Assembly (NCBI RefSeq): GCF_016026235.1 | Contig: NZ_CP065613.1 | Length of the DNA: 64,000 nt | Reading direction: 5' to 3' (one strand) | From: Escherichia coli | GTDB lineage: Bacteria; Pseudomonadota; Gammaproteobacteria; Enterobacterales; Enterobacteriaceae | Shown here: positions 29,824 through 52,633 of the stretch, piece after piece | Numbering within the stretch: position 1 is the stretch's first letter | Layout of the letters: each line of letters starts with the position of its first letter | Notes under the pieces: model-generated | Databases searched by the model: none | What the model was told of the DNA's origin: nothing | Seen by the model: the letters and a program-made list of their open reading frames with translations, nothing else | Program-made: the position numbers and the translations under genes

Positions 29824-30345
29824 TCAGCACGCGATATCGAGAGTCAACTGCAGTTGCTCGCGCCAGTACTCGACATTTGCTTCAATAACCGGCTTATCCC
29901 ATCGCCAGCGAGCCATCTCTCTTGCCCCATTGCTGGCTTTTGATTTCCGGTCATCGCGAATGCGACATGCTTGCTCATATTTCTGCTGCTCAGTCAGTTC
30001 ACCGCGAAGCAGACTATCAATGTGCAGGTCGCACCATACGGAGAATTTCGGATCGCACCATCTTGCAAAGGCAACTGATAACTTTGGATGCTGCCATGTT
30101 CCGCCGCCCCTGTCCTTTCGTGCCTTGCTTGTTTTTACATACCCGGAATCACGGGTATGTAGAATTTTCGATGGTTCACCTGAATAAACCTCATCCAGAG
30201 CTCTAACGTATTCGAGAGTTTCAGCGTTGGACAACCAGTGATCCAGACGCTTCCCGAAACGTTTTGCAATATCAGTGGCATTAATCCAGCCATCAGTATT
30301 GAAGCGGATAGGTTCGCCTTTGTAATTCAGTGGAACGATATTCAT
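29824..30345 (-). CDS. KilA-N domain DNA-binding protein
   Basis: 173 aa, MNIVPLNYKGEPIRFNTDGWINATDIAKRFGKR. Confidence 0.6.
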   Translation of the reverse strand: MNIVPLNYKGEPIRFNTDGWINATDIAKRFGKRLDHWLSNAETLEYVRALDEVYSGEPSKILHTRDSGYVKTSKARKDRGGGTWQHPKLSVAFARWCDPKFSVWCDLHIDSLLRGELTEQQKYEQACRIRDDRKSKASNGAREMARWRWDKPVIEANVEYWREQLQLTLDIAC

Positions 30346-30547
30346 AGCGTCTTACCTTTTAGAAAGATGAGCCTGTTCGCACAGAAAAGCCGCCCCGAGA
30401 TGGTCGCCACCATATACGGCAGTTCTCAGGCTCAGCTTTCTGAAAGACTCGGGATTGTTACGCGCTGCGATGCGCGGTTTACTGCGGACATATAAAAGCC
30501 CCGCAAGTGCGAGGCTCATTAAATTGACTTTGTGATTTGCAAAAAAA

Positions 30548-30985
30548 TTATTTCAGGCATTGCGTCCTGATGTATTCCTGCAGGTAGTTAACCTGCGCGG
30601 TTATCCTGTCGATTCCACTTCGGAGACGGTAATAATTGAGTTCAGCATCTGCTGTAAGTCCTGGGCTTTCTCCATAGCCCATGCTGCTGGCTCCGGTCGT
30701 TGACTTTGCACAGGTGGCGGCGACTTGCAGGCGCTTACGACCAGCAGAAACATCAGCACGGAGACTTTCGATAGTCGCGTTAGCATCAGCAAGCTCCTTT
30801 GTGTATCTGGCGTCGAGTTCTGCTACATCACGTTGACGCTTCTGCATATCAGAGATGATGGATGTGGCCTTATCGCGCTGCTCTTTGTAGGTAATGGCGT
30901 TATCACGGTAATGATTAACAGCCCATGACAGGCAGACGATGATGCAGATAACCAGAGCGGAGATAATCGCGGTGACTCTGCTCAT
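30548..30985 (-). CDS. i-spanin Rz
   Basis: N-terminal TM segment then coiled coil; ATGA overlap with endolysin stop. Confidence 0.8.
30601..30792 (-). CDS. o-spanin Rz1, embedded in Rz in another frame
   Basis: Lipobox LVVSAC followed by proline-rich [16 protein letters not shown]. Confidence 0.6.
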
Positions 30986-31515
30986 TGATCTATCCCCCAA
31001 CAGGCTAATGCGCTTTCCTGGTCACGACGAATAACCTGTCCATAGCAGTTATTTGAACGTATGCGGCAATCGCGCCCAACATCTTTTATCCACCAGCGAA
31101 TCGCCTCGCATGCGCCCTTACGATCACCGGCATTCAGCCGCTTATAAAACGTCGACGGGAAACACTTACCGGGGCCAATGTTATAGGGGCAAAATGACGC
31201 TATACCCGCTTTTTGTGGTTCGGTCAGTGGTACTTTAATATTGCGCTCCACCCATGCCAGCGCCTTATCACGTTCAATGGCGTTAACCTGGTCGCATTTT
31301 TCCTTCGACAGTTTCATACCGGGAAAAACGGGTTTACCATCCACCATCGTGGCACCCCGACAGATGGTCCAGATGCCGGAACCATCGCGGTATGCCGTAG
31401 TGTGGTTACCTTCTTTTTCATCCAGAAACTGGTCGAGAATATCAGGCGCAGGCGCACCGATAGCAATCAGTGCCAGAACGGCAGCCGACAGGCCATATCT
31501 GATTTTTACGTTCAT
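30982..31515 (-). CDS. SAR endolysin (lysozyme)
   Basis: 177 aa; hydrophobic N-terminal signal-anchor then T4-lysozyme-like core. Confidence 0.85.
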
Positions 31516-31836
31516 GGATATTTATCAGGATTTATCGGCTTCAAATCCCCGGATATGTTAAATCTTACCTCGCCAGTGATGGGCACTGGCGGGAGGAGGA
31601 TGTCAATCTGATAAACACAGAGGTGACTACGGATTACACAAATCTACCAAAACAAACTTTTGCTGATTTAATCGCACTCAGGCAAGCAGTCGTAGCTCTA
31701 ATCAACTTGTTGCCGGAGAAGGAAAAGGAATTAGTTAAAGCGCTTCTTAACAGAACTGCCGCCGATTTTTCATCATATCCACTGACAGATGACCTTGCGG
31801 ACCTTCCTGAATTAATTGCAGCGTCCGCCATTAAGC

Positions 31837-32367
31837 TTACTGAAGAGATTTACCCTCCTCAAAAATCTTCACAAAATTCCTGCGAGTAACTTCAATGCAA
31901 TAATCGTAAAACGCCGCAAACTGCTCATCGCGGCGTTTTTTTTCATCTTCAGAAGGAATCAGCACCGACAATTTTTTCTCCAGTTTTTCAATGGGCGATT
32001 CAATATCATCTTTTTCTGACCGCAATGCCGTCGGTGGCGTCTTCAGAGAACCAGTAATTCTTCCCGGTAGCTTTCCTTTGTAGGTTATCCACACATTCTG
32101 CGCCTCTAAAATTATGGGGCGCTTTTCCGGCGACTGCTCATCCCCTTCACATAACCCGGCAGCAACATCCAGGAATACCTGTCTGATTCTCATTCTGGCC
32201 GCTGCCTCATAAAACTCCAGCGCGGCACCTTCAACACGGTCCAGCGAGATGTCCAGGTCAAAAATTTCACCGTCAAAGCGTTTTTTGTCCCGTAACGCTA
32301 AAGTTACCGCAACTTTATTCTCAAAATTGCGGATCCCTTTCACAATCAGTTCATAGTTTTGTGTCAT
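31837..32367 (-). CDS. hypothetical protein inserted between holin and endolysin
   Basis: 176 aa; GGGGAG RBS about 9 nt upstream; starts 5 nt after holin stop. Confidence 0.6.
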   Translation of the reverse strand: MTQNYELIVKGIRNFENKVAVTLALRDKKRFDGEIFDLDISLDRVEGAALEFYEAAARMRIRQVFLDVAAGLCEGDEQSPEKRPIILEAQNVWITYKGKLPGRITGSLKTPPTALRSEKDDIESPIEKLEKKLSVLIPSEDEKKRRDEQFAAFYDYCIEVTRRNFVKIFEEGKSLQ

Positions 32368-32371
32368 TGAA

Positions 32372-32587
32372 TTACTCTCCCCGCGCAGCCTTACGCTTGT
32401 CTTCTCTTATTTTGAAATACAGGTTAGTCAGATATGTCAGCAGCCCAAACAGCAGACTCCCCAGCACGCCTATTGCCGCCCACTGAGACGGGGAAACCCT
32501 GTCCAGCAACTGCAGGAACCAGTAGCCCGTTCCCACCGCTGACGTGGTGTATGACACACCTGTTGTGATTTTTTCCATCTGGTCCAT
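32372..32587 (-). CDS. class II holin (phage 21 S-like pinholin), dual start MDQM
   Basis: [63 protein letters not shown] matches recalled S21. Confidence 0.85.
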
Positions 32588-32894
32588 ACCCCGTCTCCCG
32601 TTATCCGGAAGCTGACAACAATAAAAAAGCCACCAGTTAACTACTGATGGCTCTGATAACTCATGCAAGCGTCTCAGACGATCCACTGACACTACCGGTG
32701 AGTTTAACGATACCTTCCATTTGACTGGCTCACTTTTTATGATGATGCCGGTGCATTTATCTCCAGCACCAGACTTTCTATCTCAACGCCATACGTTGCA
32801 TTTTTGGTAATATCCGTCAGCGTCAGTGCATTTAGTCCCACTGCCAGACTGTCTTTTATGGCCTGGAATGCCGGGCCAGTACGATGACGTAGTA

Positions 32895-33083
32895 TCACTC
32901 CGGCTCAGTTGCACCACTGACCACCACATCACCTTCTGCTGCAATCGCCTGCATCAGGGTATAAGGGGTTATGGCCACCGGACTACCAAACGGCTGCCAG
33001 CCCTCTTTCAGTTTATGTGTCAGCTTTTCCGCAAGATCTGACGGCGGCGCCGCCCTGACAACATCATAGTGTTTAAATGCCAT
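32895..33083 (-). CDS. small phage protein (DUF1737-like)
   Basis: 62 aa from MAFKHYDVV; upstream of holin. Confidence 0.5.
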   Translation of the reverse strand: MAFKHYDVVRAAPPSDLAEKLTHKLKEGWQPFGSPVAITPYTLMQAIAAEGDVVVSGATEPE

Positions 33084-33343
33084 GGTTCTTTCCACCATCT
33101 AAAAAATAATTCTTTAAAATACCTGACATGTAATACAGAAAAAGCACAAAACCATACATTAAATAAAAACCTGATTATCAAGCAGATATGCATGGATAAA
33201 CTACAAGACGAGATATAAACCACCCTGCATTTAAATAAACAATAAACAACATCAGAAAAATAATTCTGCTCTATGGTTTACATTCAAAAATATCATTTAT
33301 ACTTTTCAGAACATCACCAGCAAGACATAAACAAGGAAACTAA

Positions 33344-33679
33344 ATGAAGTGGATTGTGATTGATACAGTTATCCAGCCATCATGCGGAATATCTTTTTCA
33401 GTCATATGGAGTAAAATAAAATTAATAATCTGGTATCAATCGGATGCTTTCTTACCTCCTGAAAGTATATTTACACTGACTCACACAGGCATCATGCTCA
33501 ATAACAAAGTGCTACCTGTAACCATTTACAACGTAGTACCATTCAATAAAACATTCTGGAATTTAATCAAAAACAGCCAGGAATGCCCTACAAATACAGA
33601 TAACGTATTGAATGAATGCTTTAATAACCGTTGCACTCTGCAAATATGTCCTTATGGACTAAAACAACAAAGTCCATAA
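33344..33679 (+). CDS. hypothetical Cys-rich protein in AT-rich island
   Basis: 111 aa; AAGGAAA RBS; opposite strand to late operon; 3' end inside a hairpin. Confidence 0.4.
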
Positions 33680-34054: not shown

Positions 34055-34130
34055 TGGTGGCCCTTGCTGGATTTGAACCAGCGACCTGGCGATTATGAGT
34101 CGCTCGCTCTCACCACTGAGCTAAAGGGCC
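34055..34130 (-). tRNA. tRNA with CAU anticodon (Ile2-type or Met)
   Basis: 76-nt cloverleaf: acceptor GGCCCTT/AAGGGCC, T-loop TTCAAAT, encoded CCA; close to recalled E. coli ileX. Confidence 0.85.
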
Positions 34131-34273
34131 GGGAGCAGAATAATAACGGTCCGTAATTAATTCCGCAATAAAAAACCCGCTCGGCGGCGGGTTGTAGAAA
34201 CTCTTCTAACGTCAGGCATAAAACGCCCATAGTTATGACGAATTTACCACAGATTCCGGAAAAATCAACCTTG

Positions 34274-35095
34274 TTACCTAGTTACCTTTTTTAACTGCCG
34301 CTCAGCCCATGCTTCTTCAATATCAAACCGGGTCACCAGCGCATCATAGAATTTCTTAACTGTTTTTTCCCATGACGCGCGTGTTATCTGGTTTGTCACC
34401 TCGCATATAGCATTAAATGCCTCCGTTGATGGTAGTCTTTCATAGCCACGACCACCACAACGCTGGCAGTCTCTGATAACAGGCATACCACGTTTTACCG
34501 ACTCTTCACGATGAATGGCGACACCACGCCCACGGCAATCCTTACAGGCGGTGGAAACCTCACCCTTTCCGCCACACTCCGGACAGGCAACTTTTACCAC
34601 CTCCCTGACTTTTTTCCATTCTTCCCAGTAAGACGGATACACACCTTTCGTACACTTTGCCCATACCGGCGGCTTACCATCCGGATACTGGACCTTGTTT
34701 GTAAAAACTACGCTTTCAATAAATTTTTCCCCATAGCAACAAGGGCACTGCTTTTTACTCGCTGCGCTGCGGGCATAATCCTCAAAAGCGTACGAAGCCA
34801 TAATGCGCATCACTACCGGTTTTATTTCTGCCGGAAGTTTTCTCAACGCCGCCACACGATCGCACCGACTGAGTGCATAATCAGCCAGTAATTCTGTTGC
34901 CCGCGCCCTGTCATTCATACTGATGCCCATTTTCCCCAGGAACGCAGAAAACCCCATCTCAGCCCGATTCTGTGTCATGCCCTGCGCGGCCATCACATCA
35001 GTGATACTCAGCGCATCTTTTGACGTTGAGGCCGATGCATCGGTCAGGCAAGGGGATTTTGGGGAGTAGTATTTCGGTAAATCTTCCAGTTTCAT
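34274..35095 (-). CDS. late antiterminator Q-like protein
   Basis: 273 aa with Cys clusters CPCCYG and CPECGGKG; followed by tRNA and lysis genes. Confidence 0.8.
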   Translation of the reverse strand: MKLEDLPKYYSPKSPCLTDASASTSKDALSITDVMAAQGMTQNRAEMGFSAFLGKMGISMNDRARATELLADYALSRCDRVAALRKLPAEIKPVVMRIMASYAFEDYARSAASKKQCPCCYGEKFIESVVFTNKVQYPDGKPPVWAKCTKGVYPSYWEEWKKVREVVKVACPECGGKGEVSTACKDCRGRGVAIHREESVKRGMPVIRDCQRCGGRGYERLPSTEAFNAICEVTNQITRASWEKTVKKFYDALVTRFDIEEAWAERQLKKVTR

Positions 35096-35466: not shown

Positions 35467-35723
35467 CAGCGCAGCACCTCCTGCACCAGTTTTTCAAACT
35501 TTCCGACTCTGGTTTCCAGCTCTGCCACACAGTCCACCAGCTCATCTACTGCTTTCTGTGCGCGATGCTTCGCCTGCATCAGTTCCCGAAGCGCGGGTAC
35601 CATATCTTTACGGATAGCATCTTTTGTTATGCCCGTTTTTTCGAGTTGTTCAGCATGACGCAGCATTTCCTGCGCGTGTTTACGCAATTGTTCAGGGGTA
35701 AAAGTCATTGTCTGGTTGTTCAA
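35466..35723 (-). CDS. hypothetical coiled-coil protein
   Basis: 85 aa between helicase and rusA. Confidence 0.5.
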   Translation of the reverse strand: MNNQTMTFTPEQLRKHAQEMLRHAEQLEKTGITKDAIRKDMVPALRELMQAKHRAQKAVDELVDCVAELETRVGKFEKLVQEVLR

Positions 35724-36753
35724 AAGAAACGCTCCATCTTACTGCTGTCAGTTCGTTTATTACTGTATCTGCGCGGATTGCCGGGCTTCATGGGAGTGGA
35801 AAGCACCCGTGCACTTTCCTGGTCCACAGGCAGAAAATGTCCGTTATAAAAACGCCGGTAAATCGTTCCCAGAGAACCGTTACGTTGTTTCGTGATATTG
35901 ATTTCTGCGATGCCCCTGGCCTGCGTATCCGGGTTGTACACTTCATCCCTGTAAAGCATCAGAATGATGTCTGCATCCGCCTCTATTTCTCCGGAATTTT
36001 TCAGGTCTGAGTTCATGGGACGTTTATTGGGTCTGGACTCCACACCGCGGGAGAGCTGGCTCAGCGCAATCAACGGAAAACCACCGGATTTTGCCAGGCC
36101 TTTAAGCCCCTTTGAGATTTCACCCACGGCAAGGTCATGACGCCCCGTGGTTCGGGTTTTTATCAGCCCGAGATAATCAACCACCACCAGCGCCGTTTCC
36201 GGATGTTTAATCAGATGGTGTTTCGTTGTTGCGCATATCTCATCAATGGTCAGGTTCGCCTGGTCCACCATCCAGATATTGCGCCCGGTCATCCGCCCCA
36301 CCCCTTGTGAGAAACGCGCCCAGTCTTCATCTTCAAAGTGAGCCACAGATTTCAGGCGTGATACTGGCATCCCTCCAGCCGCAGACACCATACGTTCACC
36401 AATCTGGATGTTCGCCATCTCCATGGTGAACAGAAGCACACCATGCCCCTGCTCAGTCACCTTGTCGATGATGTCCAGCGCAAGTTCGGTTTTCCCCATC
36501 GAAGGACGAGCCGCAATAAATACCAGGTCGCCGGGCTCCATGCCGCCTGTTTTTGCGTCCAGTTCATCAATACCGGTCATCAACGTCCTGGATTTCTCCA
36601 GTCCCTGATTCCGGCATTCAACACGCTCAACCACCTCCGGAAGCACATCATCAATATGTACCGACTGAATAACGCCCTTTTCCGTCGACAATGAGGCCAT
36701 CATGTTCTGTGCATCCTTAAGAGCATCTTCAGCTGCTTCACAGGTATGCGCAT
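35720..36753 (-). pseudogene. DnaB-like replicative helicase, C-terminal part (split by IS600)
   Basis: Walker A AARPSMGKTELAL; first 16 residues of ORF come from the IS600 end. Confidence 0.8.
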
Positions 36754-36817
36754 TGAGGTAGCCTGAGTTTAACGGACACTCCTTCCTGAAATAGAATGGC
36801 ATCAGAAGGAGCTAATA

Positions 36818-37120
36818 ATGAGCAGAAAAAACCAACGTTACTCTAAAGAGTTCAAAGCCGAAGCTGTCAGAACGGTTCTTGAAAATCAACTTTCGATCAG
36901 TGAAGGCGCTTCCCGATTATCCCTTCCTGAAGGCACTTTAGGACAATGGGTTACCGCCGCCAGAAAAGGGCTCGGTACTCCTGGTTCCCGCACGGTGGCT
37001 GAACTGGAATCTGAAATTCTGCAACTGCGTAAGGCGTTAAATGAAGCTCGCCTTGAGCGAGATATATTAAAAAAAGCAACAGCGTATTTTGCACAGGAGT
37101 CGCTGAAAAATACGCGTTAA
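36818..37120 (+). CDS. IS600 OrfA
   Basis: 100 aa HTH protein MSRKNQRYSKEFKAEAV. Confidence 0.9.
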   Translation: MSRKNQRYSKEFKAEAVRTVLENQLSISEGASRLSLPEGTLGQWVTAARKGLGTPGSRTVAELESEILQLRKALNEARLERDILKKATAYFAQESLKNTR

Positions 37121-37155
37121 TCGAACAATGGCGACAACAATTTCCCATTGAAGCG

Positions 37156-37974
37156 ATGTGTCAGGTATTTGGTGTATCCAGGAGCGGTTATTACAACTGG
37201 GTACAGCATGAACCCTCAGACAGAAAACAAAGTGATGAGCGGCTAAAACTGGAGATTAAGGTGGCACATATCCGCACTCGCGAAACATATGGAACCCGGC
37301 GGCTCCAGACGGAGCTGGCAGAGAATGGCATCATCGTTGGTCGTGACCGACTGGCACGTCTTCGTAAGGAGCTAAGGCTACGCTGTAAGCAGAAACGCAA
37401 GTTCAGAGCGACTACGAACCCGAACCACAATCTGCCAGTTGCGCCAAATCTGCTGAACCAGACGTTCGCTCCTACAGCACCAAATCAGGTCTGGGTGGCG
37501 GACCTGACGTATGTTGCCACACAGGAGGGATGGTTGTACCTCGCTGGCATCAAAGATGTTTATACGTGCGAAATTGTCGGCTACGCCATGGGAGAGCGCA
37601 TGACAAAAGAGCTGACAGGTAAAGCCCTGTTTATGGCGCTCAGGAGCCAGCGCCCACCTGCCGGGCTAATCCACCACTCTGATCGAGGTTCACAGTACTG
37701 CGCATACGATTACCGGGTCATACAGGAGCAGTCTGGTCTGAAAACATCAATGTCGCGTAAAGGTAACTGTTACGACAACGCTCCGATGGAAAGCTTCTGG
37801 GGAACGCTGAAAAATGAGAGCCTGAGCCACTATCGTTTTAATAACCGGGATGAAGCCATCTCAGTAATACGGGAATACATTGAGATTTTCTACAATCGTC
37901 AGCGTCGTCACTCTCGTCTGGGGAATATCTCCCCGGCAGCCTTCAGGGAAAAATATCATCAGATGGCTGCTTAA
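37156..37974 (+). CDS. IS600 OrfB (DDE transposase; made as OrfAB by -1 frameshift)
   Basis: 272-aa ORF; A-run AAAAAAAG near orfA 3' end. Confidence 0.9.
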   Translation: MCQVFGVSRSGYYNWVQHEPSDRKQSDERLKLEIKVAHIRTRETYGTRRLQTELAENGIIVGRDRLARLRKELRLRCKQKRKFRATTNPNHNLPVAPNLLNQTFAPTAPNQVWVADLTYVATQEGWLYLAGIKDVYTCEIVGYAMGERMTKELTGKALFMALRSQRPPAGLIHHSDRGSQYCAYDYRVIQEQSGLKTSMSRKGNCYDNAPMESFWGTLKNESLSHYRFNNRDEAISVIREYIEIFYNRQRRHSRLGNISPAAFREKYHQMAA

Positions 37975-38017
37975 AAAAAGAACAAATGGTAGTGTCCGCT
38001 ATTGCCAGTACACCTCA

Positions 38018-38378
38018 CATCGCGTAATTTCTGTAATGCCTCGTTCAGTGTTTTTTCTGCATCGCGCAGTGCGGCATTGCGCCGCAACGCTGCAACATAG
38101 TGCTCCAGTGAAGACTTCACCCAGGTTTTACGCCCGGTATCAGTAATCACCGGGGCAAGTTCTGGCATCTCATTGCACAACAGCACAGGATCAATCACGC
38201 CGGACACACGGGCCTGTCTGCAGATGCCTGTGTAGATATCCCGGTACGGTCGTACAGAAAAAACGTCCGCCGGTAGTGTGGCCAGAATATCCATCACTTC
38301 AGGATCTGCTCCGCGCAGAAAGAACGCGCCGATGACAGCGCCTTCAAGGTCATCGTTACGCCATACTGGAGTTGTCAT
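38018..38378 (-). pseudogene. DnaB-like helicase, N-terminal part
   Basis: ORF 37971..38378 minus IS-derived tail. Confidence 0.7.
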
Positions 38379-48222: not shown

Positions 48223-49041
48223 ATGTGTCAGGTATTTGGTGTATCCAGGAGCGGTTATTACAACTGGGTACAGCATGAACCCTCAGACAGAAAACAAAGT
48301 GATGAGCGGCTAAAACTGGAGATTAAGGTGGCACATATCCGCACTCGCGAAACATATGGAACCCGGCGGCTCCAGACGGAGCTGGCAGAGAATGGCATCA
48401 TCGTTGGTCGTGACCGACTGGCACGTCTTCGTAAGGAGCTAAGGCTACGCTGTAAGCAGAAACGCAAGTTCAGAGCGACTACGAACCCGAACCACAATCT
48501 GCCAGTTGCGCCAAATCTGCTGAACCAGACGTTCGCTCCTACAGCACCAAATCAGGTCTGGGTGGCGGACCTGACGTATGTTGCCACACAGGAGGGATGG
48601 TTGTACCTCGCTGGCATCAAAGATGTTTATACGTGCGAAATTGTCGGCTACGCCATGGGAGAGCGCATGACAAAAGAGCTGACAGGTAAAGCCCTGTTTA
48701 TGGCGCTCAGGAGCCAGCGCCCACCTGCCGGGCTAATCCACCACTCTGATCGAGGTTCACAGTACTGCGCATACGATTACCGGGTCATACAGGAGCAGTC
48801 TGGTCTGAAAACATCAATGTCGCGTAAAGGTAACTGTTACGACAACGCTCCGATGGAAAGCTTCTGGGGAACGCTGAAAAATGAGAGCCTGAGCCACTAT
48901 CGTTTTAATAACCGGGATGAAGCCATCTCAGTAATACGGGAATACATTGAGATTTTCTACAATCGTCAGCGTCGTCACTCTCGTCTGGGGAATATCTCCC
49001 CGGCAGCCTTCAGGGAAAAATATCATCAGATGGCTGCTTAA
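48223..49041 (+). CDS. IS600 OrfB
   Basis: Identical to copy 1. Confidence 0.9.
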   Translation: MCQVFGVSRSGYYNWVQHEPSDRKQSDERLKLEIKVAHIRTRETYGTRRLQTELAENGIIVGRDRLARLRKELRLRCKQKRKFRATTNPNHNLPVAPNLLNQTFAPTAPNQVWVADLTYVATQEGWLYLAGIKDVYTCEIVGYAMGERMTKELTGKALFMALRSQRPPAGLIHHSDRGSQYCAYDYRVIQEQSGLKTSMSRKGNCYDNAPMESFWGTLKNESLSHYRFNNRDEAISVIREYIEIFYNRQRRHSRLGNISPAAFREKYHQMAA

Positions 49042-51814: not shown

Positions 51815-52633
51815 ATGTGTCAGGTATTTGGTGTATCCAGGAGCGGTTATTACAACTGGGTACAGCATGAACCCTCAGACAGAAAACAAAGTGATGAGCG
51901 GCTAAAACTGGAGATTAAGGTGGCACATATCCGCACTCGCGAAACATATGGAACCCGGCGGCTCCAGACGGAGCTGGCAGAGAATGGCATCATCGTTGGT
52001 CGTGACCGACTGGCACGTCTTCGTAAGGAGCTAAGGCTACGCTGTAAGCAGAAACGCAAGTTCAGAGCGACTACGAACCCGAACCACAATCTGCCAGTTG
52101 CGCCAAATCTGCTGAACCAGACGTTCGCTCCTACAGCACCAAATCAGGTCTGGGTGGCGGACCTGACGTATGTTGCCACACAGGAGGGATGGTTGTACCT
52201 CGCTGGCATCAAAGATGTTTATACGTGCGAAATTGTCGGCTACGCCATGGGAGAGCGCATGACAAAAGAGCTGACAGGTAAAGCCCTGTTTATGGCGCTC
52301 AGGAGCCAGCGCCCACCTGCCGGGCTAATCCACCACTCTGATCGAGGTTCACAGTACTGCGCATACGATTACCGGGTCATACAGGAGCAGTTTGGTCTGA
52401 AAACATCAATGTCGCGTAAAGGTAACTGTTACGACAACGCTCCGATGGAAAGCTTCTGGGGAACGCTGAAAAATGAGAGCCTGAGCCACTATCGTTTTAA
52501 TAACCGGGATGAAGCCATCTCAGTAATACGGGAATACATTGAGATTTTCTACAATCGTCAGCGTCGTCACTCTCGTCTGGGGAATATCTCCCCGGCAGCC
52601 TTCAGGGAAAAATATCATCAGATGGCTGCTTAA
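51815..52633 (+). CDS. IS600 OrfB
   Basis: One substitution (F for S) versus other copies. Confidence 0.9.
   Translation: MCQVFGVSRSGYYNWVQHEPSDRKQSDERLKLEIKVAHIRTRETYGTRRLQTELAENGIIVGRDRLARLRKELRLRCKQKRKFRATTNPNHNLPVAPNLLNQTFAPTAPNQVWVADLTYVATQEGWLYLAGIKDVYTCEIVGYAMGERMTKELTGKALFMALRSQRPPAGLIHHSDRGSQYCAYDYRVIQEQFGLKTSMSRKGNCYDNAPMESFWGTLKNESLSHYRFNNRDEAISVIREYIEIFYNRQRRHSRLGNISPAAFREKYHQMAA

Follow-up and report, generated by a model that had tools for sequence, protein, structure and literature searches.

Which lysis system is encoded at positions 30548-32587 of this 64,000-nucleotide stretch of Escherichia coli DNA (the window), and how far does it follow phage 21, to which a sequence-only reading had likened it? 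Very probably (roughly 90%), a lambdoid prophage resident in an E. coli/Shigella chromosome has its late-operon lysis module in this interval, made up as a mosaic of already-described alleles. The limits of the interval had been placed exactly, position 30548 being the stop of Rz and 32587 the first ATG of S. All four described genes (S, R, Rz and Rz1) lie on the minus strand, with scores that far exceed the Pfam cut-offs and additional matches to PHROG lysis families. From S to Rz, the interval holds the following features:

32372..32587, minus strand: S, a holin of class II (P21 family) predicted to be a pinholin (PF04971; alignments with S21 and 933W S)
31837..32367, minus strand: ORF176, a member of the YdfR/DUF1327 family, extended at its C-terminus (PF07041, phrog_2091)
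31623..31889, plus strand: ORF88, a putative convergent open reading frame (phrog_2572, E=8e-53)
30982..31515, minus strand: R, a T4-lysozyme-like (GH24) endolysin whose N-terminus carries a segment of the signal-anchor-release (SAR) type (PF00959, alignments)
30548..30985, minus strand: Rz, an i-spanin with an N-terminal transmembrane segment (TMD) and a periplasmic domain (PF03245, phrog_13)
30601..30786, minus strand: Rz1, an o-spanin lipoprotein wholly within Rz in the +1 frame (PF06085)

The S21-68/S21-71, R21, Rz and Rz1 proteins of phage 21 constitute the prototype pinholin-SAR endolysin system. Aligned with their phage 21 counterparts, S is 77%, R 33%, Rz 57% and Rz1 41% identical, so that the similarity to phage 21 proposed from the letters of the sequence is indeed present, and the functional class is borne out as a P21-family two-TMD holin, a SAR-type GH24 endolysin and an embedded two-component spanin. 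The two systems share their Pfam families, the S TMD2 positions, the GH24 triad, a Cys-free SAR-type segment and the placement of Rz1 inside Rz. They differ in several respects. The R proteins are only 33-37% identical; the residues added in the long S form are basic in phage 21 (MKS) and acidic in the window (MDQ); S and R of phage 21 overlap with no cargo between them; and phage 21 Rz1 is richer in both Pro (10, compared with 5 in the window) and Cys (2, compared with 1). The label "phage-21-type" is apt for the class, but it does not name the nearest described relatives, which are phage 933W (S 96%, R 91%), the K-12 Qin prophage (RrrQ 93%) and a spanin of the HK106/HK97 type. As judged from these alignments, the module is of mosaic origin, combining S and R of the 933W/Qin type with an Rz/Rz1 allele of the HK97/HK106 type. 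The description of the cassette as compact does not hold, since the 856 bp between S and R (31516-32371), or 42% of the interval, contain a YdfR-family gene (ORF176) and the opposite-strand ORF88, neither of which had been mentioned.

Comparison with individual systems locates these differences. Phage 933W (and H-19B and Stx phages) has an S of the same length (71 aa), an R of 177 aa with the same triad (E35/D44/T50) and a SAR-like N-terminus, and an M-x-Q-M start of S lacking a basic residue. In 933W, however, 4 nt separate S from the R gene behind it, and R is parted from Rz by an ant gene, whereas in the window the YdfR-family gene and ORF88 separate S from R, and R and Rz overlap directly; its Rz1 differs as well, being of a proline-rich, two-Cys type that is 52% identical. 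The cryptic K-12 prophage Qin (essQ-ydfR-rrrQ-rzpQ/rzoQ) has the same order of S, YdfR-family gene, R and embedded spanin pair, together with the closely similar RrrQ and a YdfR 77% identical to the N-domain of ORF176. It departs from the window in EssQ, which is 77% identical and starts with MKSM (basic, S21-like), in a YdfR of 103 aa that overlaps rrrQ (here, ORF176 encodes 176 aa, and a 321-bp spacer with ORF88 separates it from R), and in RzpQ, which is annotated as DUF2514 and not as a lambda-type Rz. HK97-like phages carry the same spanin, with Rz1 100% identical in HK106 and 89-98% in HK75, mEp043, Sf101 and phi80, embedded in the same +1 frame; we found no spanin difference, and that those phages combine this spanin with other holin and endolysin alleles shows how mosaic the cassette is. 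Lambda shares the operon logic of a dual-start holin gene, an endolysin and embedded spanins. Lambda S105/S107 and R are of another kind, S being a holin with three TMDs that makes large holes and R a cytoplasmic transglycosylase; the cassette in the window is of the pinholin/SAR class.

The S protein (71 aa, N-terminus MDQMEK) matches PF04971 "Bacteriophage P21 holin S" with E=1.4e-32 (111.9 bits, cut-off 26) and S21-71 with E=7e-42. Its first TMD is weakly hydrophobic (mean hydropathy 0.42, compared with 1.42 for TMD2), and the TMD2 residues G40, G43, S44, G48, T51, T54 and N55 are invariant with S21, in which these positions line the pore. These features fit a predicted pinholin pattern of two TMDs, a weakly hydrophobic TMD1 and a TMD2 with a conserved small/polar face. 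By analogy to S21, S is predicted to form nanometre-scale holes that depolarise the membrane without letting a cytoplasmic endolysin out. Stx-phage S proteins have likewise been classified as P21-family pinholins (PMC10462455). A canonical large-hole holin was considered for S and ruled out by its two TMDs and its P21 family.

The gene offers two in-frame starts, ATG 32587 (Met1, 71 aa) and ATG 32578-32576 (Met4, 68 aa), preceded by one further feature:

32588..32612, minus strand: translation-initiation region of S, with the Shine-Dalgarno (SD) sequence GGGAG 7 nt 5' of ATG-1 (read from the sequence)

The MDQM dual start had been equated with the S21 antiholin/holin pair. The two starts are real features of the frame, but the second half of that claim is not supported, as the extension of the long form (Met-Asp-Gln) contains no Lys or Arg and one Asp and is therefore acidic, with no added positive charge of the S21 kind. 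Extra positive charge in the extension is the defining feature of the S21-71 antiholin and of lambda S107 (PMC9636201). In S21, pore formation is delayed by positive charges at the N-terminus and promoted by negative ones; in substitution scans of the S21-68 N-terminus, the delay came from Lys or Arg only, and negative or hydrophobic residues favoured exit of TMD1 (bioRxiv 10.1101/2021.04.20.440580). Because its extension is acidic, the long S product is not expected to be a charge-anchored antiholin like S21-71.

Could the 71-aa Met1 product nevertheless inhibit the 68-aa Met4 holin, exactly as S21-71 does S21-68? Several observations speak for such an antiholin. Met1 and Met4 are invariant across S of the window, 933W S, EssQ and S21, and an M-x-x-M (or M-K-M) start is present in nearly all of 120 P21-holin-family representatives even though the residues between the methionines vary. 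The SD sequence lies 7 nt before ATG-1 as it does in phage 21, and sequestration in a hairpin is possible in both: in a small predicted hairpin, the SD of S pairs with a CUUCC that precedes it, and RNA folding put the SD into a hairpin for all three sequences (window, 933W, phage 21), at z-scores of -0.8 to -1.4 that are not significant. Against it stand the composition of the extension, Asp-Gln in the window and Tyr-Gln in 933W, in contrast to the extra positive charge that defines S21-71 and lambda S107 (PMC9636201), the restriction of delayed S21-68 pore formation to Lys and Arg (bioRxiv 10.1101/2021.04.20.440580), and the family at large. About half of the 120 representatives have no basic residue in the start (MYQM, 32; MDQM, 4; MNQM, 3; and others), the remainder including basic starts such as MKSM (22), MYRM (10) and MLRM (5), among others. 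The antiholin analogy for the long form is unproven, and we regard it as doubtful. We also put forward, tentatively and as an unlikely option on present evidence, that the conserved dual start of the large 933W/MDQM branch of P21-family holins may yield no charge-anchored antiholin at all; an extension that is acidic or neutral would then leave the long form no less lytic than the short form, and timing would need to be set otherwise, with the YdfR-family RNase E-binding protein that many of these cassettes carry between S and R as one candidate.

The surroundings of the cassette bear on whether the module is still in use. Q, RusA, terminase, portal and capsid genes surround it in lambdoid order, and terminator-like hairpins flank the S-to-Rz block on both sides:

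34274..35095, minus strand: Q antiterminator gene (PF03589 "Antitermination protein Q", E=6.2e-55)
32626..32654, minus strand: terminator-like hairpin and U-run just upstream of S (consensus scan; 12 pairs, then TTTATTGTTG; putative function)
30496..30517, minus strand: terminator-like hairpin 30 nt past the Rz stop (consensus scan; 9 pairs, 6 of them GC, then TTATATG; putative function)

Q is the presumed activator of late transcription, which would read through to the lysis genes. An IS3-family element at 36818-37974 interrupts the prophage dnaB gene (replication helicase), and the cassette may for this reason never be expressed in a productive cycle. Further transposase-sized open reading frames were seen inside the window. 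One could thus regard the cassette as an inert relic of a defective prophage, its lysis genes no longer expressed or selected. Besides the interrupted dnaB and the transposase-sized frames nearby, such decay would accord with the ACG that replaces the canonical ATG of ORF88, with an R gene that has no SD and with the location of the analogous K-12 Qin module in a cryptic prophage. Yet the four lysis frames are full-length and recur in identical form on tens to hundreds of contigs, phage records included, and the Q, terminase, portal and capsid frames are intact. We therefore rate a relic as improbable; moreover, that question bears on present activity and not on the identity of the genes, and the assignment as a lambdoid lysis module applies in either case.

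ORF176 fills the position occupied by R in 933W and is a cargo of the late operon. It starts 4 nt past the S stop, with its SD (GGGGAGAG) in the 3' end of S, and matches PF07041 with E=4.4e-40 (136.2 bits, cut-off 25) and phrog_2091 with E=1.6e-103; its residues 1-74 are 77% identical to K-12 YdfR. YdfR-family genes recur at the S-R position with modular C-termini, and the S-YdfR-R layout is found in Qin and many phages; 2H10 and PhiR5_1 are inducible phages that carry a YdfR-family gene. AlphaFold2 modelling from a 34-sequence alignment reached a mean pLDDT of 51.9, residues 1-72 (three strands and a helix) alone being moderately confident, and a Foldseek comparison of the model with the PDB returned nothing below E=0.05, hence no functional lead. 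A suspected resemblance of its C-terminus to the downstream KilA-N protein was rejected (best E=0.17). PADLOC returned nothing for ORF176, ORF88, the DUF1737 protein or ORF111, its sole match being a weak PDC-S22 hit for the KilA-N protein.

The convergent ORF88 overlaps the 3' end of ORF176 by 53 bp. The ATG with which its relatives start is ACG here (31629-31631), leaving a GTG at 31623 as candidate start, and these relatives amount to only 8 phage records (tblastn) and 18 database proteins (search of 5.8 billion proteins), all at least 81% identical. In the sole diverged copy available (93% DNA identity), ORF88 and its antisense frame are both open, the codon-position counts being too small to favour either. 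Between the R start and ORF88 lies a further element:

31571..31591, no strand assigned: perfect 8-bp inverted repeat, CGCCAGTG-5 nt-CACTGGCG (read from the sequence)

Neither ORF176 nor ORF88 is a known lysis function. Might the cargo between S and R (ORF176, with or without ORF88) still be a functional part of the cassette, regulating lysis timing or late mRNA, for example through RNase E? YdfR residues 1-72 bind the catalytic half of RNase E, and YdfR co-purifies with RNA (PMC13232886). The resemblance of the first 74 residues of ORF176 to this RNase E-binding protein would suit a regulator, as would its translational placement right behind S in the late operon and the recurrence of YdfR-family genes with modular C-termini at exactly this site. 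On the other hand, phage 21 and 933W lyse with no gene at this position, YdfR overproduction alters few transcripts (PMC13232886), the YdfR family has no experimental link to lysis, and ORF176 itself yielded no PADLOC match, no confident structure past residue 72 and no fold match. Such a regulatory role is distinctly improbable, and we treat both frames as passengers of the lysis module.

R (177 aa) matches PF00959 with E=7.3e-24, and its triad E35-X8-D44-X5-T50 aligns with that of R21 at all three residues. Its alignment with R21 (33-37% identity) has E=3e-21, and PDB matches comprise 7m5i, 3hde (R21) and 4zpu (RrrD), with E of about 1e-14 for 3hde/3hdf; an NCBIfam search gave as its sole match a sub-threshold gene-transfer-agent endolysin for R. 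Its N-terminus is hydrophobic, as claimed, and is of the type expected of a signal-anchor: K4 and R6 precede an 18-residue segment with 9/18 Gly/Ala/Ser, the maximum Kyte-Doolittle 17-residue mean is 1.93, and there is no usable cleavage site. Within the most hydrophobic 17-residue window, R has 7/17 small residues compared with 10/17 in R21 and is somewhat richer in Leu/Ile. Residues 1-51 contain neither Cys nor a lipobox, and the Ala-x-Ala-like sites (IGA|P, APA|P) each stand directly before Pro. Signal peptidase I does not tolerate Pro after the cleavage site. In SAR endolysins of the P1 Lyz type, a Cys in the SAR segment isomerises a caging disulfide; with no Cys in its N-terminal 51 residues, R would belong to the R21-like subtype and not to the P1-like one. 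The Young laboratory lists 933W R as a SAR endolysin (PMC9239132). By its 91% identity to that protein and its class similarity to R21, R is probably a SAR endolysin that would be tethered and inactive until depolarisation. It is highly improbable that R is instead a secreted enzyme whose Sec signal peptide is cleaved off, or an ordinary lysozyme of the cytoplasm. Two points would favour this, the somewhat Leu/Ile-rich N-terminus and an identity of only 33-37% with the experimentally dissected R21. Against them, the Pro behind every candidate site led us to reject a cleavable signal peptide, the first 51 residues hold no lipobox or Cys, the 91% identical 933W protein is a listed SAR endolysin (PMC9239132), and the P21-family holin partner makes a channel too small for a folded cytoplasmic lysozyme. 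The expression level of R is uncertain, as no Shine-Dalgarno sequence is recognisable within ~12 nt of its ATG and the gene before it on this strand is 321 nt away.

Rz (145 aa; PF03245, E=1.3e-34; TMD hydropathy 2.88) begins at an ATG at 30985 that overlaps the R stop as ATGA, and over its first 34 residues it is near-identical to phage 21 Rz. Rz1 (61 aa; PF06085, E=2.4e-20; lipobox VSAC) starts 199 nt into Rz, at ATG 30786 with the SD AAGGAG 7 nt upstream and not at TTG 30792. By family and arrangement the two are an embedded two-component spanin of the lambda Rz/Rz1 family. An out-of-frame lipoprotein gene within Rz had been correctly recognised; the "proline-rich tail" ascribed to it had not, as the mature part of 42 residues has 5 Pro just after the lipid-modified Cys and that Cys as its only one. 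A penta-proline stretch is absent from Rz1 (aligned RPEPAAW versus PPPPPAW; 5 Pro in total against 10-11). The central penta-proline of lambda Rz1 is mutationally sensitive, and spanins require at least one periplasmic Cys that can enter a disulfide between molecules, in lambda C152 of Rz or C29 of Rz1 (PMC6139136). Here, Rz supplies Cys92 and Cys143, the latter aligned to the Cys that phage 21 Rz has at its C-terminus. The Rz1 allele, despite having neither the penta-proline nor a second Cys, features important in lambda Rz1, is 100% identical in the records of phages HK106 and phiKp_30.

Taken together, the lysis module would operate as follows. Q-dependent late transcription would pass the hairpin upstream of S, and S, spanning the inner membrane twice, would build up there. 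If S behaves like its homologue S21, its weakly hydrophobic TMD1 would exit the bilayer and TMD2 would form small pinholes that collapse the membrane potential. R would meanwhile be exported via Sec and kept inactive by its Gly/Ala/Ser-rich N-terminal signal-anchor; depolarisation would free it into the periplasm, where it would cleave the cell wall, as suggested by its likeness to 933W R and its class similarity to R21. In the last step, the Rz/Rz1 spanin complex would disrupt the outer membrane.

The lysis cassette is already known: its families are textbook ones, and each lysis protein is public with an identical sequence (274 contigs for S, 202 for R, 27 for Rz and 219 for Rz1; 463 for the ORF176 protein, P0121). 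Its discovery value is small for that reason, and the useful outcome lies in three corrections: the module is a mosaic and not a copy of phage 21, it carries two uncharacterised passenger frames, and its holin has a dual start without a basic residue. Should the long form of S lyse no less well than the short form, lysis timing would need another means of control. The missing basic residue in the dual start concerns the medically relevant holins of Stx phages as well.

The minus strand of the interval 30548–32587 holds four ORFs that fit the lysis cassette described in a sequence-only reading, and both their positions and their Pfam matches, with scores that exclude chance, bear that description out. 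They are listed here with the two ORFs lying between the holin gene S and the endolysin gene R.

Lysis genes and S–R cargo (window positions)
32372–32587, minus: S, holin, 71 aa, N-terminus MDQMEK; Pfam PF04971 'Bacteriophage P21 holin S', E = 1.4e-32
31837–32367, minus: ORF176, YdfR/DUF1327 family; PF07041, E = 4.4e-40; phrog_2091, E = 1.6e-103
31623–31889, plus: ORF88, phrog_2572; convergent, with a 53-bp overlap with the ORF176 3' end
30982–31515, minus: R, endolysin, 177 aa; PF00959 phage lysozyme, E = 7.3e-24
30548–30985, minus: Rz, spanin subunit, 145 aa; PF03245, E = 1.3e-34; start codon and R stop share the sequence ATGA
30601–30786, minus: Rz1, spanin subunit, 61 aa; PF06085, E = 2.4e-20

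As expected, Rz1 is embedded out of frame, lying wholly inside Rz in the +1 frame. Its 61 aa start at the ATG at 30786, with AAGGAG 7 nt upstream; a TTG at 30792 was considered and rejected in favour of this ATG.

For comparison with phage 21 we used the S21 (phage 21 holin) sequence, which matched phage 21 OL657228.1 at 100%, together with the annotated lysis region of that record. In pairwise alignments, proposed earlier as the check on the assignment, all four proteins proved similar to their phage 21 counterparts: S at 77% identity (55/71; E = 7e-42), R at 33% over 147 aa (E = 3e-21), Rz at 57% (E = 1e-57), and Rz1 at 41% (E = 6e-09). The label 'phage-21-type' is thus apt for the functional class but not for the closest relatives, since 933W, Qin, and HK106 are nearer. 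S and R are 96% and 91% identical to those of the Stx phage 933W, and R shares 93% identity with RrrQ from the cryptic K-12 prophage Qin, whose gene order (essQ-ydfR-rrrQ-rzpQ/rzoQ) is the same as in the window. For Rz1, phages HK106 and phiKp_30 have the identical protein (100%), and HK75, mEp043, Sf101, phi80, and several Salmonella phages have versions with 89–98% identity; identity to its Stx phage counterparts is only about 50%. With S and R nearest to 933W and Qin and Rz1 nearest to HK106-type phages, the cassette is a mosaic of the kind typical of lambdoid phages. Proteins identical to S, R, Rz, and Rz1 are present on 274, 202, 27, and 219 public contigs, respectively, where they carry the annotations class II holin, lysozyme, lysis protein, and Rz1 family lipoprotein; no component of the lysis cassette is new, and public data contain annotations for all of them.

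The S protein has a weakly hydrophobic TMD1 (mean hydropathy 0.42) and a clearly hydrophobic TMD2 (1.42), values shared with 933W S and similar to those for S21, and its TMD2 residues G40, G43, S44, G48, T51, T54, and N55 are invariant with S21. Stx-phage S proteins have been assigned to the P21-family pinholins (PMC10462455). The two potential starts attributed to S are indeed present, Met1 and Met4 being invariant in the window S, 933W, EssQ, and S21. Almost all of the 120 best cluster representatives in the S family begin with M-x-x-M (or M-K-M). Of the eight commonest N-termini, MYQM (n = 32), MDQM (the window type; n = 4), and MNQM (n = 3) have no basic residue between the methionines, while MKSM (n = 22), MYRM (n = 10), MLRM (n = 5), MKM (n = 5), and MMKM (n = 3) have one; these counts indicate that the two starts are conserved in the family and the charge between them is not. 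The antiholin action of S21-71 (the long form) and lambda S107 is due to the positive charge added by the extension (PMC9636201). In substitution scans of the N-terminus of S21-68, the short holin form, no residues other than Lys or Arg delayed the formation of pores, and translocation of TMD1 was favoured when the residue was negative or hydrophobic (bioRxiv 10.1101/2021.04.20.440580). The extension in the window S, Met-Asp-Gln, adds negative charge, whereas that of S21-71 is positive, so the proposed likeness to the S21 antiholin/holin pair fails on the only one of its defining features that sequence can test, and the antiholin analogy is unsupported for this non-basic long form, which belongs to a widespread branch of holins. 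The spacing of the S Shine-Dalgarno sequence from ATG-1, 7 nt, is that of phage 21. Pairing of this sequence within a small hairpin is possible in the window, in 933W, and in phage 21; in all three, fold energies were not significantly better than those of shuffles.

The cassette had also been called compact, but only its R/Rz/Rz1 part is: S and R are separated by 856 bp (31516–32371), 42% of the interval, a stretch that contains ORF176 and ORF88, both overlooked in the sequence-only reading. ORF176, a passenger in the late operon, begins 4 nt after the S stop, with its Shine-Dalgarno sequence (GGGGAGAG) inside the S 3' end. Its exact protein is found on 463 public contigs, and nearly all members of the YdfR family come from Escherichia and Shigella. 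Family members combine a conserved N-terminal region of ~110 aa with modular C-terminal extensions, giving lengths of 114–116, 176, 183, 211, 268, and 296 aa, and the longer forms come with a convergent small ORF. ORF176 has 7 residues fewer than the common 183-aa form. The family occupies exactly this S–R position in Qin, vB_EcoS-640R1, 2H10, PhiR5_1, and Stx2 phage 86, whereas phage 21 and 933W carry no cargo gene there. In K-12 YdfR, residues 1–72 are the part that binds RNase E, at its catalytic half; the protein also co-purifies with RNA (PMC13232886). ORF176 is 77% identical to K-12 YdfR over the RNase E-binding region; its predicted structure is confident only for residues 1–72 and yielded no fold match. 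PADLOC returned no match for the S–R cargo. For ORF88, a putative gene, a search of 5.8 billion proteins yielded only 18 homologues, close relatives all from E. coli or Salmonella, and the ATG usual in these relatives is ACG in the window (31629–31631).

R retains the catalytic triad E35-X8-D44-X5-T50 at the same positions as in R21, the phage 21 endolysin, and shows matches to the sequences of the crystal structures 3hde/3hdf (R21) and 4zpu (RrrD). Its N-terminus carries K4 and R6 followed by an 18-residue segment that is half Gly/Ala/Ser and free of Cys, with a proline after each possible signal-peptidase site. These features, in line with the predicted N-terminal signal anchor, fit a signal-anchor-release (SAR) segment like that of R21, not the disulfide-caged type known from P1; the Young laboratory lists 933W R among SAR endolysin constructs (PMC9239132). 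In 933W, R holds the slot right after S and uses a Shine-Dalgarno sequence inside the S 3' end. In the window ORF176 holds that slot, so that R now lies 321 nt downstream of the preceding same-strand gene, with no recognisable Shine-Dalgarno sequence within about 12 nt of its ATG (31516–31545, minus). Conservation of the 27 nt preceding the R start extends to other cassettes with a YdfR-family gene. The spacer that precedes both R and ORF88 also contains a perfect 8-bp inverted repeat with a 5-nt loop (31571–31591; CGCCAGTG / CACTGGCG), followed by no T-run on either strand.

The Rz protein combines an N-terminal TMD (hydropathy 2.88) with two periplasmic cysteines, Cys92 and Cys143. In mature Rz1 there are 5 prolines, which sit directly after the lipid-modified Cys rather than in the proline-rich tail described earlier, and there is no second Cys; the Rz1 proteins of 933W and phage 21 have 10–11 prolines and 2 Cys. 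In lambda, the Rz1 penta-proline stretch is mutationally sensitive and lysis requires a disulfide at Rz C152 or Rz1 C29 (PMC6139136). The window Rz1 has RPEPA in place of this stretch, and only the Rz cysteines are left in its spanin, so any intermolecular disulfide must involve Rz (C92, C143). The allele (30601–30786) is of the HK106/HK97 type, and we infer that it is functional because the identical Rz1 occurs in the HK106 and phiKp_30 phage records.

The lambdoid prophage lies in an E. coli/Shigella chromosome and is transcribed leftwards, in the order Q ... S-ORF176-R-Rz/Rz1 ... KilA-N, terminase, portal, capsid; the torZ–argS flank agrees with E. coli FDAARGOS_943 at 99.9% identity.

Features around the cassette (window positions)
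37971–38378: DnaB N-domain, and 35720–36802: DnaB_C, on either side of an IS3-family element
37156–37974: IS3-family orfB, and 36818–37120: orfA
34274–35095, minus: Q antiterminator, first in order; PF03589, E = 6.2e-55
34174–34193, minus: strong terminator-like hairpin just downstream of the Q gene
34055–34130, minus: tRNA-Met, after the Q-proximal hairpin and before the plus-strand ORF
33344–33679, plus: AT-rich ORF (111 aa), lying between Q and S; 34.5% GC against 50.6% for the window
32895–33098, minus: DUF1737 gene (small protein), phrog_2036, upstream of S
32626–32654, minus: terminator-like hairpin between the DUF1737 gene and S
30496–30517, minus: terminator-like hairpin after Rz/Rz1 and before the KilA-N gene
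29824–30345, minus: KilA-N domain protein, next after the hairpin beyond Rz

The tRNA-Met gene and the Q-proximal hairpin occupy the position at which tR' and phage tRNAs are found in lambdoid phages. The ORF at 33344–33679 matched nothing in Pfam or PADLOC and has the look of a moron-type insertion. The DUF1737 gene is found at the same place in related phages, e.g., vB_EcoS-640R1, and the KilA-N protein weakly matches (E = 2e-6) the PADLOC candidate defence model PDC-S22. Because the DnaB-like replicative helicase gene (35720–38378) is split by the IS3-family element (36818–37974), the prophage is probably defective, its lysis genes being intact nonetheless. Further 272-aa ORFs of the same size lie at 48223–49041 and 51815–52633.

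By analogy with homologues, from which its dynamic steps are taken, the textbook lysis route is the most likely one for the gene content, overlaps, and sequence features observed here. Q-modified RNA polymerase would read through into S; S would build up until TMD1 exits the membrane and TMD2 forms pinholes that depolarise it; Sec-exported, membrane-tethered R would then be freed, refold, and cut murein, and Rz/Rz1 would remove the outer membrane.
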